From the sequence record PQ511150.1: DNA of 64,000 nt; one strand, written 5' to 3'. The notes beneath the pieces were generated by a model that saw only the letters and a list, made by a program, of their open reading frames with translations, did no database searches and was not told the DNA's origin. This DNA comes from Escherichia phage NHEP29. The first letter of the stretch is position 1. Every line of letters begins with the position of its first letter. Shown one piece after another: positions 3,568 to 30,113 of this stretch. Position numbers and translations under genes: made by a program.

Positions 3568-3604
3568 TAGAAAGATTATACTCCAACCATCCTTGGTTGT
3601 AAAC
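3568..3604 (-). promoter_or_regulatory. T4-type early promoter (GTTTAC -35, 18 nt spacer, TATAAT -10) with palindromic spacer
   Basis: Minus strand reads GTTTAC-aaccaaggatggttggag-TATAAT; SD and ATG at 3546 follow. Confidence 0.6.
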
Positions 3605-3608
3605 TGAT

Positions 3609-4556
3609 TTATGATTTTAATGCATTCATTGCGTTAAAAAGTTTAGAGTACTGCAACTGGAGCTTGGTAACTACTTGTTGAGCATCACGAAGCTTAGCTT
3701 GTGCTTTGTCAAGTTCAACGGATAGTTGGTCTACAGTGGCCTTTATTTGATTATAATGGTAATCTTCGGCAGGAAGAAGACCATTAGAGATTTCCAGTTT
3801 TGCTTCCGGTAAAGTATATACAGACGGTGTGCCGTTAAACATAACAGGTTGTGCTGAAGCTGCATTAATCTTACCGATAATCGGTGTAATAATTGACGCT
3901 TCGAACGTTGCATTTTCCTTTTTAAGATTTTGATAGTATTCAGAGTCTTTGTGCCACCATGGCGCAGGAACCTTTTTACCAATAGATACACGGGCCTGGA
4001 TAGCGATATGGCCCTTATTCTTGATAGGGTTGATAATATTAAGCTCACGAGAATAAATTGCTTTAATCTGGTGAATATTATCACCTAACACTTCCAACGC
4101 TTGGTGGAATACACGAGCAACGTTATCATTCTTAGGTTTATACGTAAGAGTGAACTCATTCTCACTGATAACCATGATTTCTAACTTATCGTAAGTATAT
4201 TTCAAATGTTTCATATTAATTGCTTGAGGACGAATACGAGAAGCAATGGCCATCAGATTGTTAAGGTTATTCCGGAACTGCTTAGCGAAATATTGTCCTT
4301 CACCGCCAATACAAAAATTACGAAGTTTCTGTTTGGCTAATAAACGGCTGAACTCACCATTTTTAATGAACTCTTTAACGGGTGTGTTAGTAACGCATTC
4401 AAATTGAGTAAACTTACGAGAAGTAATCCCATAATATGAACAGACTTCCTCAATCTCTTCAGGAGTCTTTACAGGCATACGGATAGGATTAGGACCTGGG
4501 GTATATGCGTTCGAGGTAAATTCTTTGATAAGTTCTCTACGTGTAATAAAAGCCAT
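3609..4556 (-). CDS. Uncharacterised protein, paralogue family member 2 (C-terminal coiled coil)
   Basis: 315 aa; YFAKQFRNNLNNLM and EFSRLLAKQKLRNF align with neighbours. Confidence 0.7.
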   Translation of the reverse strand: MAFITRRELIKEFTSNAYTPGPNPIRMPVKTPEEIEEVCSYYGITSRKFTQFECVTNTPVKEFIKNGEFSRLLAKQKLRNFCIGGEGQYFAKQFRNNLNNLMAIASRIRPQAINMKHLKYTYDKLEIMVISENEFTLTYKPKNDNVARVFHQALEVLGDNIHQIKAIYSRELNIINPIKNKGHIAIQARVSIGKKVPAPWWHKDSEYYQNLKKENATFEASIITPIIGKINAASAQPVMFNGTPSVYTLPEAKLEISNGLLPAEDYHYNQIKATVDQLSVELDKAQAKLRDAQQVVTKLQLQYSKLFNAMNALKS

Positions 4557-4575
4557 TTTATATTCCTCATGTTGA

Positions 4576-4612
4576 AAAATTTATTATACTCCAACCATCC
4601 TTGGTTGTACAT
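4576..4612 (-). promoter_or_regulatory. T4-type early promoter, same cassette as 3568-3604
   Basis: Near-identical repeat tatactccaaccatccttggttgta; -10 TATAAT, -35 TGTACA. Confidence 0.55.
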
Positions 4613-5601
4613 CATTCCTTAAGAAGTTTTACTACTTGAATAAGATTAGCTCGTTCTGTTTTATTTTTACCGTTTAAGCCTGCTAATCGTGAGATTTCAT
4701 CGTCAGTCTGTTGAATAGTTACATTAAGTTCATTAATCAAAGCTTCAAAGTATTTGATTTGCTCAGCATGTTTTGATTCAAATTTCTGAACCGGAATAAC
4801 GTTCAGTTCATCAATAAGGTCTTTAAGAGCATCTTCTTGGTTGATGTCATATTCAACTTCTTTTATTTCTTCAACGAGCTCGTCTTTATATCTAACGTCT
4901 TTTAGTCCTGGAGCTGGTCCTGAAATCTCTTCTTTAAGAGTACAAACATATCCAATACGGTATTGGATACCGTCTCGCTTGATATCAACTTCGTCAATAA
5001 ATCCACAATGTTTAAGACCAGAGCCGATTAGGTCAAAATATCCTTGACGTCGTCCTTCAAACGTTACACGAACTACTAAGACAGTTTTACCTGCAACCTT
5101 TTGAAGCTCACATTTATAAAAGTCTGTTGAACCTGAATAACGTGGATGAGTTTTAAAGTTCATCTGACGATCTAGGCCCATTTGTAAGCGTGCTGATACG
5201 GCCATAAAACGTGTTTGGTTCTCGTTAAGATGAGCAACAATCCATTTCAAAGGCATTTTACACTGTTCACGACCGAACAAATCAGTACGTCCTAGATTAC
5301 GCAGGATGTTGTTAGAGTTAATCATCGACAGAACGTTAAGTTTATTCAGCGCGCTGAAGATTCCATCGGCCATTGATTTTCCGTAACCTTTACACGCTTT
5401 AATAAGCGCTCGCGGTAGATTAGTATAGATTTCAGACGGCATATGAAAATCAAATTTACTAGTCAGTAATTGATGAACTTGGATAGCAATTTGTTCATAA
5501 TTAAGTGCTCTGCGATCATTATGGTCTTTAAACCACACTTTAATCTGTGAAGCACATAAACCGTTAATTTCATGTTTTACCGCATCAGATGTAATGCTCA
5601 T
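4612..5601 (-). CDS. Uncharacterised protein, paralogue family member 3 (C-terminal coiled coil)
   Basis: 329 aa; SMADGIFSALNKLNVL and VSARLQ...NF segments align with members 1 and 2. Confidence 0.7.
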   Translation of the reverse strand: MSITSDAVKHEINGLCASQIKVWFKDHNDRRALNYEQIAIQVHQLLTSKFDFHMPSEIYTNLPRALIKACKGYGKSMADGIFSALNKLNVLSMINSNNILRNLGRTDLFGREQCKMPLKWIVAHLNENQTRFMAVSARLQMGLDRQMNFKTHPRYSGSTDFYKCELQKVAGKTVLVVRVTFEGRRQGYFDLIGSGLKHCGFIDEVDIKRDGIQYRIGYVCTLKEEISGPAPGLKDVRYKDELVEEIKEVEYDINQEDALKDLIDELNVIPVQKFESKHAEQIKYFEALINELNVTIQQTDDEISRLAGLNGKNKTERANLIQVVKLLKE

Positions 5602-5663
5602 ATCTATTTCCTCAGATTGAATTGGAACTCAAAACCATTATAACCCGTCCTTGGGTAAAGCGT

Positions 5664-6191
5664 TTATGCGTGAACCGTCTTTAAACGTTCTTCAAATTTC
5701 CGAAGAGTACTAATACGTTCTGCTTTCTGTTTTGTGTAGTTTGCAATACGTTCTGAAGTGAGAGCGTATCGTTCGTTTACTGATTCTTTCGTGAAGTCAG
5801 GGATTTCACGAGAAGCTTTAATTTCATCAAACTTATCGAGTACTGCCTGGTCTTCAGCGATTAAATTTTCGTACATCTCGATATCTTTCTTGATAAACTC
5901 GATATCTTCCTGGGTTACTTTGGATAAACGAGATGCTTTATCCTTTTTGTACTGCTCGTTGGTTTCACGAGACCAGAATAATGTACGTTTTTTGTTAGTG
6001 TTTTTGTAGACTTCCACAATTCCAACTGAATCGATGATAACAATCCAATTCCAGCGAGATTTGAAAATCTGACCTCCGTCCACGGTAATCTCGTTACCAT
6101 AAGCAACGTCATTAAAGAACTTGCTTTGTGCTTCAGATTTAAATTTACCGTCGTTATAATTTACCAGGTTGAAAATATCTTTAGCGTTCAT
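5664..6191 (-). CDS. Hypothetical protein
   Basis: 175 aa ORF with upstream promoter cassette; no recognisable motif. Confidence 0.65.
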   Translation of the reverse strand: MNAKDIFNLVNYNDGKFKSEAQSKFFNDVAYGNEITVDGGQIFKSRWNWIVIIDSVGIVEVYKNTNKKRTLFWSRETNEQYKKDKASRLSKVTQEDIEFIKKDIEMYENLIAEDQAVLDKFDEIKASREIPDFTKESVNERYALTSERIANYTKQKAERISTLRKFEERLKTVHA

Positions 6192-6209
6192 GTTTTACCT
6201 CCAGTAGTT

Positions 6210-6248
6210 GATAGGTCTATAATAACATAACCATAGACCTTGTAAACA
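6210..6248 (-). promoter_or_regulatory. PeSL-like early promoter (GTTTAC / TATTAT) with inverted repeat AGGTCTAT..ATAGACCT
   Basis: Conserved cassette gttgataggtctata..gtaaac immediately upstream of ORF start 6191. Confidence 0.6.
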
Positions 6249-29145: not shown

Positions 29146-29504
29146 GAGTGTTCCACCACTTCAAAAGTATGTGCATTGACAATCTGATACCAGTCAAAAT
29201 TTTCTTCAGTATTTTTGTAGATTTCACGAAGAGCTTCAACAGTTTTTCCTGTAGCAACAAGATCGTCAATACCGCCAAGAGGATAACAGTCGTAACCAGC
29301 AAACAGAAGAAAATTAATAGTTTCTGTAGGTTCTGGATGCAGAACACCGTTATCGTCTACCACTTCAAAGAAAATGTAAGAAGGAGTACAAGTTTTAATC
29401 CAGGCCCAGGCTTGAGCTGCTGAATCAAATGGTCTGCGTATCAAACGACAATCAGGGTCTTTAGAAGGATTTGCTTCAAAATCCGCATATACGTGATATT
29501 TCAT
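29142..29504 (-). CDS. Hypothetical protein
   Basis: 120 aa from ATG 29504 with AAGGTGA SD. Confidence 0.5.
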   Translation of the reverse strand: MKYHVYADFEANPSKDPDCRLIRRPFDSAAQAWAWIKTCTPSYIFFEVVDDNGVLHPEPTETINFLLFAGYDCYPLGGIDDLVATGKTVEALREIYKNTEENFDWYQIVNAHTFEVVEHS

Positions 29505-29505
29505 T

Positions 29506-29712
29506 TTACTCACCTTTTGCAATTTTATCCATAACGATAGCGATTAAGCCGATTAGAAATGCTACTACCAATGAGATAGAATTTTCTGTTGTTGTCAGTA
29601 GTCCACAAATGAATCCTACAAACATCGAAAAACTAAAAGCCATTGAAGCAATTACTACAGCAACATTACGAATCAGTTCAGCGCGTTTCATTTTATTTCT
29701 CCATTTACTCAT
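29506..29712 (-). CDS. Small membrane protein (2 TM helices)
   Basis: 68 aa, hydrophobic core. Confidence 0.55.
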   Translation of the reverse strand: MSKWRNKMKRAELIRNVAVVIASMAFSFSMFVGFICGLLTTTENSISLVVAFLIGLIAIVMDKIAKGE

Positions 29713-29715
29713 TTG

Positions 29716-29758
29716 TTTTGATAGGACTACTATATCATAGTCCTATCAGCATGTAAAC
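29716..29758 (-). promoter_or_regulatory. PeSL-like early promoter with inverted repeat GATAGGACT..AGTCCTATC flanking -10
   Basis: GTTTAC, 18 nt, TATAGT. Confidence 0.6.
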
Positions 29759-29761
29759 TAC

Positions 29762-30049
29762 TTACAGAAGAGTTTTTGCAATAATTTTAAGCTGAGCTAC
29801 AGAAATATGCTTAGCTTTAAACAGTGCAGTCTCTTCAGCAGGAGAGATAACAATAGTAGCGCCATCTTTCTTAGCAGACCATCCATCCCCTAAGTAAACA
29901 GTACCTTTTACTTCTTCGCCGTCAACCAGACTAATCATTGGTTTACCCTCACGTCCTTTATTTGCTTTAATAACTTCGGAAGTAAGGGTCGCTTCGGTCA
30001 GAGTAGAAACGTTAGCATCAGGTGATATAAATTCTTTATAGGTTTTCAT
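29762..30049 (-). CDS. ipI: Internal protein I with capsid-targeting sequence
   Basis: 95 aa beginning MKTYKEFIS; same length and position (next to 57B) as T4 IPI. Confidence 0.75.
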   Translation of the reverse strand: MKTYKEFISPDANVSTLTEATLTSEVIKANKGREGKPMISLVDGEEVKGTVYLGDGWSAKKDGATIVISPAEETALFKAKHISVAQLKIIAKTLL

Positions 30050-30071
30050 TTTATTTCCTTGAGGTCGTTTA

Positions 30072-30113
30072 TTTGATAGGATGATAGTAACACACCATCA
30101 TCCTTATGTAAAC
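30072..30113 (-). promoter_or_regulatory. PeSL-like early promoter with inverted repeat GGATGATG..CATCATCC
   Basis: GTTTAC, 18 nt, TACTAT upstream of ipI. Confidence 0.55.

Follow-up and report, generated by a model that had tools for sequence, protein, structure and literature searches.

The early region of Escherichia phage NHEP29 is punctuated by a repeated module that we consider probably to be of the promoter-early stem-loop (PeSL) type, an early-expression unit whose hairpins belong to read-through RNA and whose repeats serve as recombination sites in an RB69-like (Mosigvirus) phage. The window, i.e. the whole stretch of 64,000 nucleotides that was analysed (PQ511150.1), is a segment of a Mosigvirus (RB69/JS09-like) genome of a T4-type coliphage, with 95-97% identity to PHB12, JS09 and APCEc01, and the JS09 and RB69 annotations supplied its gene map. 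The early region lies on the minus strand, runs nrdC-tk-regB-denV-e-tRNA-ipI and holds 19 module copies.

The module consists, in order, of an A-rich upstream stretch, GTTTAC, a spacer of 17-18 nt, TGn-TAnnnT, the start-site box AGNCCTATCAA, an A-rich leader and the ribosome-binding site GGAG. The first-pass annotation had described a motif of ~40 bp repeated about twenty times upstream of minus-strand genes, and a hexamer scan together with a position-weight scan bears this out, with 20 minus-strand copies, 19 of them in 3568-30113 and one at 62.5 kb (Table 1). At a threshold of at least 10 bits there were 20 hits on the minus strand versus 4 on the plus strand, with ~4.7 hits in Markov shuffles when both strands were summed, and at 16 bits or more all 17 hits were on the minus strand; since the position-weight matrix was derived from the module copies themselves, the independent evidence lies in the strand bias of the hits and in their high scores. 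The 20 nt that precede the -35 have an AT fraction of 0.76, versus 0.62 window-wide; in 16 of 19 copies the upstream gene's stop codon is 23-28 nt ahead of the -10, and the leaders of three copies match the published RegB cleavage consensus. Single small ORFs were said earlier to separate the cassettes, but of the 18 intervals between copies only seven or eight hold one gene, the others 2-11.

Table 1. Module copies and associated features; "-10 at" gives the first base of the -10 hexamer, and z compares the hairpin with dinucleotide shuffles.
Feature	Coordinates	Strand	-10 at	Hairpin	Remarks
PeSL copy upstream of ipI-type internal-protein gene	30044..30113	-	30089 (TACTAT)	box-type GGATGAT/ATCATCC, -10 in loop, z -4.6	cargo: phrog_4363 internal virion protein
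PeSL copy	29689..29758	-	29734 (TATAGT)	box-type TGATAGGACTA/TAGTCCTATCA, MFE -17.7, z -6.8	
GC-rich hairpin	~26693-26718			AAGCCCC..GGGGCTT	upstream of copy 26589..26657
PeSL copy	26589..26657	-	26634	no -10-spanning hairpin	
PeSL copy	26026..26095	-	26071	only weak, within spacer, ACACC/GGTGT, z -1.9	-35 TGTACA
PeSL copy, divergent box	25737..25806	-	25782 (TATAAT)	TGAGAGC/GCTCTCA, z -3.7	
PeSL copy	22930..22999	-	22975	box-type GATAGGGCTA/TAGTCCTATC, one G.T pair, z -6.0	
PeSL copy	21635..21704	-	21680	box-type AGGTCTGTAG/CTATAGACCT, z -5.5	upstream boundary of one-gene cassette
Cassette cargo ORF, 66 aa	21436..21636	-			phrog_6200, unknown function
PeSL copy	21366..21435	-	21411	box-type TGATAGGGC/GTCCTATCA, z -3.4	downstream cassette boundary
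denV promoter copy	18342..18411	-	18387	SD-type, MFE -17.6, z -5.9	spacer TTCCTCCAAG pairs with ribosome-binding site CTTGGAGGAA
PeSL copy	17600..17669	-	17645	none significant	insertion site (301-587 bp) in JS09 and PHB12
Fossil T4-type denV promoter	17236..17305	-	17281	nested, z -3.7	first three denV codons, then stop (ATGACTCGATGA); near-identical to denV promoter of locus L120
regB promoter copy	15051..15119	-	15096	14-bp SD-type TTCTCCTCTAGTTG/CAACTAGAGGAGAA around -10 and start site, MFE -21.4, z -5.6	
Terminator-like hairpin, canonical, with T-run	~10852-10884			upstream region z -3.5	upstream of mobD.2a copy
mobD.2a promoter copy	10775..10843	-	10820	weaker SD-type TTCTCCTC/GAGGAGAA, z -1.3	
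PeSL copy	10325..10394	-	10370	box-type TTGGTAGGA/TCCTACCAA, z -4.6	compensated A-T to G-C change versus other copies
UUCG-loop GC hairpin	8030-8047				upstream of copy 7933..8001
PeSL copy	7933..8001	-	7978	own hairpin weak	-35 GTGTAC
PeSL copy	7655..7723	-	7700	none	cassette-replacement breakpoint versus JS09, L020, L117
nrdC.8 promoter copy	6179..6247	-	6224	box-type AGGTCTATGG/CTATAGACCT, z -3.7	
PeSL-like copy, no box	4543..4612	-	4588		-35 TGTACA; 26-nt spacer and -10 identical to those of copy at 3580
PeSL-like copy	3535..3604	-	3580	weak fold, G.U-rich, z -1.7	
Twentieth copy, between gp23 and gp24	62464..62533	-	62509		outside 3568-30113
89-aa ORF	62204-62473	-			downstream of copy 62464..62533, putatively driven by it

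The -10 had been placed in the loop of a hairpin, and the four hairpins quoted as examples are all present as described, but the arrangement does not extend to every copy: only 8 of the 20 show spacer-box pairing around the -10 (z = -3.4 to -6.8 against dinucleotide shuffles). A second class of four hairpins, the SD type, joins the spacer to the Shine-Dalgarno sequence of the gene that follows, and the copies of regB, denV and mobD.2a belong to it; the first-pass annotation had overlooked this class. In three copies (10820, 7978, 26634) a distinct GC-rich hairpin precedes the -35, and about five are free of any hairpin, so that the module can do without one. In about 60% of copies the spacer doubles as the sequence of the 5' hairpin arm, and the box-type hairpins lie 6-14 nt past the upstream stop codon.

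In the original PeSL model the hairpins are terminators or attenuators for upstream RNA polymerase, such that the module ends one unit and starts the next, a reading we consider unlikely for this phage. The intergenic position of the hairpins, directly after the upstream stop codon, would suit it, as would the separate GC-rich hairpins at 10820, 7978 and 26634, the first with a clear T-run, and an RB49/phi1 reporter in which one PeSL stem-loop lowered lacZ expression as strongly as rrnB T1 (PMC2839356). However, a U-tract is absent after all eight -10-loop and all four SD-type hairpins, where AAAACAAA follows instead, and a terminator scan reported neither type. Moreover, the stems are A/U-rich and of 9-14 bp, versus the polyG/polyC stems of RB49, and the loops of the SD type reach about 15-32 nt. 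Lacking a U-tract, the -10-loop hairpins are therefore not canonical terminators, and because they were not flagged as terminator-like either, the sequence of this phage gives no support to the "terminator" part of what defines a PeSL.

The stem arms covary beyond the conserved hexamers, the point on which the first-pass annotation had let its claim of selected structure stand or fall. In a swap test the mean MFE was -12.0 kcal/mol with the copies' own downstream sequence versus -8.3 with that of other copies (z = -5.4), and 0 of 20000 permutations reached the observed MFE. Among 196 unique copies harvested from T4-like genomes, where counts exceed the number of independent events because the copies are phylogenetically related and divergent boxes are under-sampled because the seeds needed an exact box match, 39% were better than 99% of spacer shuffles. 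The variable base of the box tracked the spacer, AGACCT occurring with AGGTCT eight times and with no other variant, AGCCCT with AGGGCT 12 times, plus one mismatched case, and AGTCCT with AGGACT 14 times, plus two G.T cases. Distinct arm pairs numbered 53, including a series from A-T through G.T to G-C. The SD-type flanks were paired at 6.95 of 11 positions versus 5.05 +/- 0.20 with permuted partners, and one position showed four Watson-Crick pair types. At orthologous regB, denV and nrdC.8 promoters of 20-40 diverse T4-like genomes the hairpin is kept with unrelated arms, its type changing between box and SD; an SD-type stem is present at the Tequatrovirus regB promoter, too. On the sense strand the box-type stems contained 19 G.T versus 4 A.C pairs (p = 0.003), an excess that points to a hairpin acting in read-through RNA from upstream, and the SD-type stems showed no G.T excess (8 versus 9).

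We propose that each module would act as a host sigma70 "uber" promoter, with an A-rich UP region embedded in the 3' end of the preceding gene, a -35 GTTTAC abutting the stop codon of that gene, then TGn and the -10, the whole fused to the conserved box at the predicted start site, an A-rich leader and GGAG. The 5' arm of the hairpin lies upstream of this start site, and thus the hairpin would exist only in read-through RNA begun at a promoter farther upstream. It would bury the ribosome-binding site in the SD-type copies (regB, denV, mobD.2a), where read-through RNA may be translationally silent and shielded from RegB, with translation restricted to RNA begun at the gene's own promoter. Secondary structure is known to protect GGAG from RegB, whose cleavage consensus is GGAGRAYARAA (PMC3014915). 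The box-type hairpin may mark and stabilise the upstream cistron on its 3' side, or attenuate read-through weakly, efficient termination not being its proposed role, although, given the RB49/phi1 reporter result, real attenuation by it may occur. All these RNA-level functions are putative. The SD-type copies share the logic of SD sequestration with T4 e, soc, 49 and I-TevI, in whose long transcripts the SD is folded into a helix; the proximal promoter is contained in the 5' strand, which leaves the transcript from that promoter translatable (PMC3014915). In those genes the internal promoter is late (gp55, TATAAATA) and expression is delayed to late times (PMC3014915), whereas here a sigma70 early promoter has the anti-SD strand as its spacer, and expression would thus track the immediate-early pulse.

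When the flanking ORF content was compared across relatives, indel and replacement breakpoints coincided with modules and the cassettes were patchy in their presence (51, 117 and 121 records), in keeping with the shuffling suggested earlier. Within 75 nt of a module -10, zones that make up 8.4% of the sequence, lay 19 of 44 distinct breakpoints. The enrichment over other gene junctions is modest (9 of 16 PeSL junctions hit versus 14 of 54 others; Fisher p = 0.034), and several indels (558, 6296-6676 and 12660-13259) occur with no module close by. In RB69 one chimeric PeSL takes the place of the PeSL-ORF-PeSL unit at 21411/21680, whose cargo ORF is absent from RB69, PHB12 and ESh27, and the unit is found with 97% identity at a different locus, nrdC, in Tequatrovirus phiD1. 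Such clustering would also fit a role of the stems in DNA, as cruciforms or single-strand hairpins that are substrates for recombination or endonuclease VII, or as by-products of template switching that perfects repeats. Several stems are perfect palindromes, and in one RB49 case the crossover was within the hairpin loop (PMC2839356). We nevertheless find this quite improbable: copies without a hairpin (7700, 17645) serve as breakpoints too, a duplex-symmetric mechanism predicts equal G.T and A.C counts in the box-type stems, and the SD-type hairpins, with loops of 15-32 nt, make poor cruciforms and have a functional RNA signal as 3' arm.

The symmetry centre at the -10, and an early-promoter shut-off mechanism that is still unknown (PMC2988021, PMC3014915), could bring to mind an operator for a dimeric DNA-binding protein, e.g. 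a shut-off factor. This is very improbable, as the arms are wholly different among copies (GAGAGC, GGATGAT, AGGTCT, GATAGGACT and others) yet complementary, the variable base covaries whereas a protein site predicts conserved half-sites, the stem register moves by ~6 nt relative to the -10, and the symmetry is missing in about half of the copies. That the complementarity arose by chance, or as a mere consequence of promoter conservation, we regard as already refuted, for although, with the box conserved, one ancestral hairpin copied repeatedly could mimic selection, the swap and spacer-shuffle tests, the matched base variants, the permutation and slide controls and the unrelated arms of orthologous promoters all speak against it.

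PeSL elements have been described in other T4 relatives (PMC2839356, PMC4122927), and the identification of the modules as such holds for every feature that can be checked by sequence: a strong sigma70-type early promoter, an A/T-rich upstream region, a stem-loop, a 3' SD and start codon, and repetition in hyperplastic regions beside small accessory genes, at indel or replacement breakpoints of close relatives. A literature search for this phage found no data on transcription starts, 3' ends, translation or RegB. The PeSLs of RB49/phi1 (Arbiol 2010, PMC2839356), to which the present modules are likened from sequence alone, similarly repeat an A/T-rich region, sigma70-type early promoter, stem-loop, SD and ATG, with the stem-loop often between or over the -35/-10 boxes and G.T pairs tolerated, and they cluster in hyperplastic regions beside ORFans; the RB49 ORF192 case, PeSL-ORF-PeSL versus a single PeSL in close relatives, is the same as that of 21411/21680 versus RB69. 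RB49/phi1 differs in its -35, TTGACA, where the present copies have GTTTAC (T4 type), and in its polyG/polyC stems, where those of the present copies are A/U-rich and formed with the conserved start-site box; in addition, the hairpins here have no U-tract, and the SD-pairing subclass falls outside the five subclasses of PMC2839356. The consensus TTTACW N17 TAYWAT of the PST/T4 and nt-1/KVP40 PeSLs (Comeau 2014, PMC4122927), a study that did not analyse RB69-type phages, fits these copies, and those elements are likewise tied to indels, internal-protein loci included. The stem-loop of PST lies just upstream of the promoter, as in copies 10820, 7978 and 26634, whereas the majority of the present hairpins extend over the -10 or as far as the SD. 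The available text of Nolan 2006 (PMC1524935) gives 57 predicted early promoters for RB69, which are the same elements as the present modules, with GTTTAC, an A-rich -40s region, C favoured from -3 to -1 (CCT in the present box) and, as here, many of them upstream of novel ORFs; that text treats the elements purely as promoters and describes no hairpin, covariation or recombination role.

Separately from any RNA role, the near-identical, same-orientation repeats of 60-100 bp would be sites of homologous recombination, through which accessory genes (internal head proteins, ORFans) may be singly deleted, inserted, replaced or moved between phages. The ipI/ipII/ipIII-type genes are single-gene cassettes with a module at each boundary and are replaced among relatives, in likeness to the polymorphism of the T-even internal-protein locus (Repoila et al. 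1994, as cited in the available text of PMC4122927). Judging from these genome comparisons, the modules are joints for swapping small accessory genes between phages.

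The first-pass annotation had described about twenty minus-strand copies of a ~40 bp promoter-like motif between 3568 and 30113, and 20 were recovered by a hexamer scan, a -10-anchored listing and a position-weight scan (each copy is named here by the window position of the first base of its -10). The four sites that it quoted read exactly as stated. Nineteen copies lie within that range and the twentieth, 62509, outside it, while the motif itself is real but belongs to a module that extends further than 40 bp. At 10 bits or more there were 20 minus-strand versus 4 plus-strand matches (Markov shuffles gave ~4.7, both strands together), and at 16 bits or more all 17 matches were on the minus strand; since the scoring matrix was built from the copies themselves, it is this strand bias that constitutes independent evidence. 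All 20 copies have GTTTAC (or GTGTAC/TGTACA), a 17-18 nt spacer and TGn-TAnnnT, and the complete order, after an A+T-rich stretch, is GTTTAC, spacer, TGn, TAnnnT, AGNCCTATCAA, an A-rich leader, GGAG/GAGG and ATG. The 20 nt upstream of the -35 have an A+T content of 0.76 (A 0.44) versus 0.62 window-wide, and in 16 of 19 copies they belong to the 3' end of the preceding gene, which has its stop codon directly against the -35 and 23-28 nt before the -10. In the aligned copies GGAG/GAGG stands 5-10 nt ahead of the ATG, supplying the Shine-Dalgarno (SD) sequence and start codon expected of a promoter-early stem-loop (PeSL). By their consensus match, with -35 and -10 correctly spaced, the modules would be sigma70-type early promoters, and they are the RB69-type early promoters predicted by Nolan et al. 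2006 (PMC1524935), who list 57 in RB69 with C preferred at -3 to -1.

Some modules carry further signals. The leaders of 10370, 7978 and 7700 fit the RegB cleavage consensus GGAGRAYARAA (PMC3014915), and the module may thus bring its own mRNA-inactivation site. The conserved leader (ACAAATGAG) also contains an upstream ATG without a ribosome-binding site of its own, which shares the reading frame of the true start codon in some copies (29734, 7700), so that mechanical ORF callers over-extend by 4-7 codons. The two modules flanking nrdC.5, 3580 and 4588, share an identical 26-nt stretch, ACAACCAAGGATGGTTGGAGTATAAT, and diverge downstream of the -10, which suggests a recent exchange or duplication limited to the promoter core.

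Folding of each copy, with z taken against dinucleotide shuffles, distinguished four groups. The hairpin with the -10 in its loop, which had been reported for many copies, is present in eight of the 20 and not in the remainder. In these box-type copies the spacer forms stems of 9-12 bp with the end of the -10 and the start-site box, leaving the -10 in a loop of 3-8 nt (MFE -12.5 to -17.7 kcal/mol, z -3.4 to -6.8). The first-pass annotation missed a second class, the SD-type, in which the stem joins the spacer (TTCTCC...) to the Shine-Dalgarno region of the following gene, with the entire promoter core enclosed between the two arms. These are 15096 at regB (-21.4 kcal/mol, z -5.6), 18387 at denV (-17.6 kcal/mol, z -5.9), 17281 at a denV fragment (z -3.7) and, weaker, 10820 at mobD.2a (z -1.3), the last of which also belongs to the three copies with a separate upstream hairpin. 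About five copies have no significant fold. A stable stem-loop within or beside the promoter, as in PeSLs, is therefore found in the first three groups, and degraded or partial elements are also listed in the PeSL papers (PMC2839356, PMC4122927).

Positions of modules, hairpins and neighbouring features in the window
Feature	Position	Strand	Basis or remark
nrdC, nrdC.x, mobD.1, tk, vs, regB, vs.x, ip genes, denV, e, nudE, e.x	1-33.7 kb	minus	JS09/RB69 mapping
ipI, 57B/57A, genes 1, 3, 2, 4	within 1-33.7 kb	minus	JS09/RB69 mapping
Two tRNAs	28101-28255	minus	
Late genes, gp53 and gp5 through gp23 and gp24	from ~33.6 kb	plus	
Box-type modules (eight)	30089, 29734, 25782, 22975, 21680, 21411, 10370, 6224	minus	folding
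SD-type modules (four)	15096, 18387, 17281, 10820	minus	folding
Modules with separate upstream hairpin (three)	10820, 7978, 26634		GC-rich, upstream of -35, long upstream gaps
Modules without significant fold (about five)	26071, 17645, 7700, 4588, 62509		3580 marginal
GC-rich hairpins in three long intergenic gaps upstream of modules	8030-8047, ~10852-10884, ~26693-26718		
RegB-consensus leaders	10336-10350, 7944-7958, 7656-7670	minus	GGAGAACAAAA, GGAGAATAAAA
Leaders with upstream ATG	29691-29715, 7656-7680, 10336-10350	minus	
nrdC.5	3609-4556		DUF7235
Identical 26-nt stretches	3575-3600, 4583-4608	minus	
Isolated module and 89-aa ORF	62204-62533	minus	between gp23 (60583-62151) and gp24 (62575-63858)
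Second denV promoter	17236-17305	minus	T4-type
First denV codons and stop	17245-17256		ATGACTCGATGA
Intact denV	17941-18354		Mosigvirus-type promoter
66-aa ORF cassette	21423-21698		between modules 21680 and 21411
One-gene cassette	7730-7940		
Indels without module at either end	552-560 (~558), 6296-6676, 12660-13259		versus RB69, JS09, PHB12
185-aa ORF	10887-11444	minus	phrog_2143, unknown function
Six ORFs of 315-333 aa	2596-9038, 21717-22673	minus	nrdC.3,.5,.6,.10,.11, RB69ORF134c-like

PeSLs are described as acting as terminators or attenuators, and on this point the sequence proxy fails for the promoter-overlapping hairpins. Neither box-type nor SD-type hairpins are followed by a U-tract, the sequence there being AAAACAAA, and a terminator scan reported none of them. 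The arrangement of an intrinsic (Rho-independent) terminator, a GC-rich hairpin and then a U-run, occurs only in the separate hairpin upstream of 10820, which has a clear T-run, and in part in the one upstream of 7978; one of the three upstream GC-rich hairpins has a UUCG tetraloop. The Tequatrovirus phiD1 has a very similar UUCG-loop terminator ahead of its cassette promoter. A literature search returned no usable start-site or 3'-end maps for T4 or RB69. The absence of U-tracts calls the label 'terminator' into question for the PeSLs of the RB69 group.

A mechanism symmetric in the duplex, whether a cruciform or a protein-bound palindrome, predicts equal numbers of G.T and A.C mismatches. 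The box-type stems, read on the sense strand, have 19 G.T versus 4 A.C (p = 0.003, with the penalty equal for all mismatches), and this bias points to a sense-strand transcript; in SD-type stems the two are balanced (8 versus 9). An initial count of 28:1 was discarded as circular because the score favoured G.T, and the symmetric penalty was used instead. As the 5' arm lies in the spacer, a transcript bearing the hairpin must start at an upstream promoter.

The arms themselves covary beyond chance, as the first-pass annotation had surmised. Spacers fold better with their own downstream sequence (mean MFE -12.0 kcal/mol) than with that of other copies (-8.3 kcal/mol; z = -5.4), and none of 20000 permutations was as low as the observed mean. 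A motif scan of IMG/VR yielded 113 stretches, almost all of them on T4-like contigs of 160-175 kb, which together with relatives provided 196 unique copies; in 39% of these the stem beats 99% of spacer shuffles. Box AGACCT pairs with spacer AGGTCT (8 copies, no other variant), AGCCCT with AGGGCT (12, plus one mismatch) and AGTCCT with AGGACT (14) or, through G.T, AGGGCT (2). The harvested copies share ancestry and were found with seeds that demanded a perfect box match, so none of the counts given here for them is a count of independent events. There were 53 distinct arm pairs, some unrelated in sequence, and a stepwise series can be followed from TTGATAGGACTA/TAGTCCTATCAA through TTGGTAGGACTA/TAGTCCTATCAA (G.T) to TTGGTAGGACTA/TAGTCCTACCAA. 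When 16 regB promoters were aligned with MAFFT, RNAalifold predicted no pairs; the stems are in different registers among phages, and we therefore anchored the alignment on CTCC/GGAG and controlled it by permuting and sliding the partners. Among 44 unique SD-type CTCC...GGAG pairs, 6.95 of 11 flanking positions were paired, versus 5.05 +/- 0.20 for permuted partners (maximum 5.75 in 2000 permutations) and 3.6-4.2 for slid partners, and one flanking position showed four Watson-Crick pair types. The covariation of the arms led us to reject a protein operator as the explanation, and chance likewise.

Over 20 kb, the Mosigvirus coliphages PHB12, JS09, APCEc01 and SHSML-52-1 are 95-97% identical to the window, whose gene content was taken from the annotation of JS09 and RB69 after mapping to these two genomes. 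On this map, the flagged interval corresponds to the classical nrdC-tk and e-ipI hyperplastic regions of the T-even genome. The stretch of 27 kb between nrdC.x and ipI contains nineteen copies; the remaining one is located between genes 23 and 24, and the position-weight scan found no other in the ~30 kb of late genes. The cargo consists of internal virion proteins and proteins of unknown function, and, as with PeSLs, many copies occupy hyperplastic regions and adjoin small non-essential genes. The isolated PeSL-like early promoter beside the major capsid gene gp23 lies on the opposite strand within the late region, and its 89-aa ORF has a weak DUF4859 match under the Pfam cut-off.

A megablast comparison of window positions 1-34000 with JS09, RB69, PHB12, ESh27 and five partial Mosigvirus contigs gave 44 distinct breakpoints, 19 of them no more than 75 nt from a module -10, in zones that make up 8.4% of the sequence. 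Gene junctions with a module were at breakpoints in 9 of 16 cases versus 14 of 54 without one (Fisher p = 0.034), and three further modules, unassigned to junctions by the gene caller, are also near breakpoints. Insertions, deletions and replacements between close relatives thus coincide with modules, as for PeSLs, and the expected presence and absence of cassettes across related phages was found, with patchy ORFs and breakpoints at modules. The further proposal that cassettes flank single small ORFs is correct for the 7 or 8 of 18 inter-module intervals that hold one gene and incorrect for the others. The clearest case is a 66-aa ORF that is absent from RB69, PHB12 and ESh27, where there is instead one chimeric module joining the upstream flank of one copy to the downstream gene of the other; RB49 ORF192 has the same topology of PeSL-to-PeSL versus single module (Arbiol 2010). 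Every one of the 121 phage records that contain this ORF matches it at 95% identity or more, and Tequatrovirus phages are among them; in contrast, most of the 145 records with the adjacent gene reach only 90-95%. In Yersinia phage phiD1 the ORF lies between two nrdC.x-type genes, again bounded by modules, and homology to the window stops inside the box of the downstream module. Further one-gene cassettes are also patchy, with 51 records containing that at 7730-7940 and 117 the ipI-type gene; relatives of an e.3-like ORF were at only two loci in a viral contig search.

Several indels have no module nearby, and other mechanisms must therefore also act. At ~558 all relatives have a 147-bp insertion, and genes of the tk.2-tk.4 interval are lost or replaced. 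The 185-aa ORF is shared by the window, PHB12 and ESh27 and missing in JS09, RB69 and three further relatives; one of its breakpoints coincides with the upstream edge of module 10820, and the other falls at a junction that has no module. Six ORFs of near-equal length, mostly of the nrdC.x region, were considered as module-duplicated paralogues and rejected, since BLASTP shows no similarity and their Pfam families differ (DUF7235, AAA/STAND NTPase, weak and below cut-off, RlaP nucleotidyltransferase, and DUF7275 with DUF7277).

Among 20-40 T4-like genomes, from which the surroundings of tk were retrieved, the regB, denV and nrdC.8 promoters nearly always have a hairpin, with unrelated arms and varying type. 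The regB promoter is SD-type in Mosigvirus, in Tequatrovirus (TTTTCCTCTTGACTG/CAGTTAAGAGGAGAA; 502 mostly Tequatrovirus-type records match this promoter region at 95% identity or more) and in several other lineages, and box-type in a few. At denV the -10 and discriminator are often paired with SD and AUG, the nrdC.8 promoter is box-type in the window and SD-type in T4-like and other lineages, and that of nrdC.10 has no hairpin in the window and strong ones elsewhere. Such a distribution agrees with repeated selection for a structure, acting together with frequent exchange of entire modules. The window also contains a second, T4-type denV promoter followed by the three first denV codons and a stop, adjoining an internal-protein cassette; JS09 is annotated with a truncated 'DenV' fragment at the corresponding place, and the fragment looks like the scar of a recombination with a T4-like phage.

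The modules are repeated, their hairpins are selected and biased to the sense strand and lack U-tracts, and recombination joints cluster at them. It can be hypothesized that the modules fire as immediate-early promoters and that the hairpins form only on read-through RNA: the 5' arm is the -35/-10 spacer, upstream of the probable start ~7 nt past the -10, and the module's own transcript would thus be without the 5' strand. For regB, denV, the denV fragment and mobD.2a, SD/AUG is predicted to lie in a stable helix, the flanks covary, and orthologues in other genera are predicted to be alike. SD-type hairpins would then silence the downstream gene on read-through RNA and shield its GGAG from RegB, a protection by structure that is known (PMC3014915), and expression of regB, denV and similar genes would consequently follow their own promoter. 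Located 6-14 nt past the stop codon of the preceding gene, the box-type hairpins may act as 3' stabilisers or weak attenuators, and the repeated 60-100 bp may provide homology for RecA/UvsX-type exchange. Tentatively, and with slightly less than even confidence, we propose that the spacer of many T4-type early promoters also serves as an anti-Shine-Dalgarno (or anti-start-site) strand, such that a gene is translated and exposed to RegB only on RNA from its own promoter and read-through RNA is silent, and that this 'one promoter, one translatable gene' insulation has been kept at regB, denV and nrdC.8 in Mosigvirus, Tequatrovirus and Dhakavirus-like phages although the arm sequences have turned over completely. 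The SD-type copies would act like the hairpins of T4 e, soc, 49 and I-TevI, whose internal promoter is late (gp55), TATAAATA (PMC3014915), but they use a sigma70 early promoter instead and are therefore not members of that set.

At the level of sequence, the modules have all the testable properties of PeSLs (PMC2839356, PMC4122927). These were defined in three phage pairs, RB49/phi1, T4/PST and KVP40/nt-1 (PMC2839356, PMC4122927), and predicted in probably all T4-like phages (Comeau 2014, PMC4122927); the literature that we searched contained no description of PeSLs in RB69-type phages, and the window extends them to that group. To the original PeSL papers are added covariation statistics, a strand-asymmetry test pointing to RNA, a breakpoint census and a cross-genus cassette at different loci, and a subclass hiding the ribosome-binding site is now separated out. 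Insulation of this kind, if true, would allow portable promoter-gene cassettes to be inserted anywhere in a densely transcribed region without mis-expression. The ribosome-binding-site-hiding subclass, if real, would be a simple rule that keeps shuffled accessory genes correctly expressed, and one that could be useful in engineering T4-type therapeutic phages.
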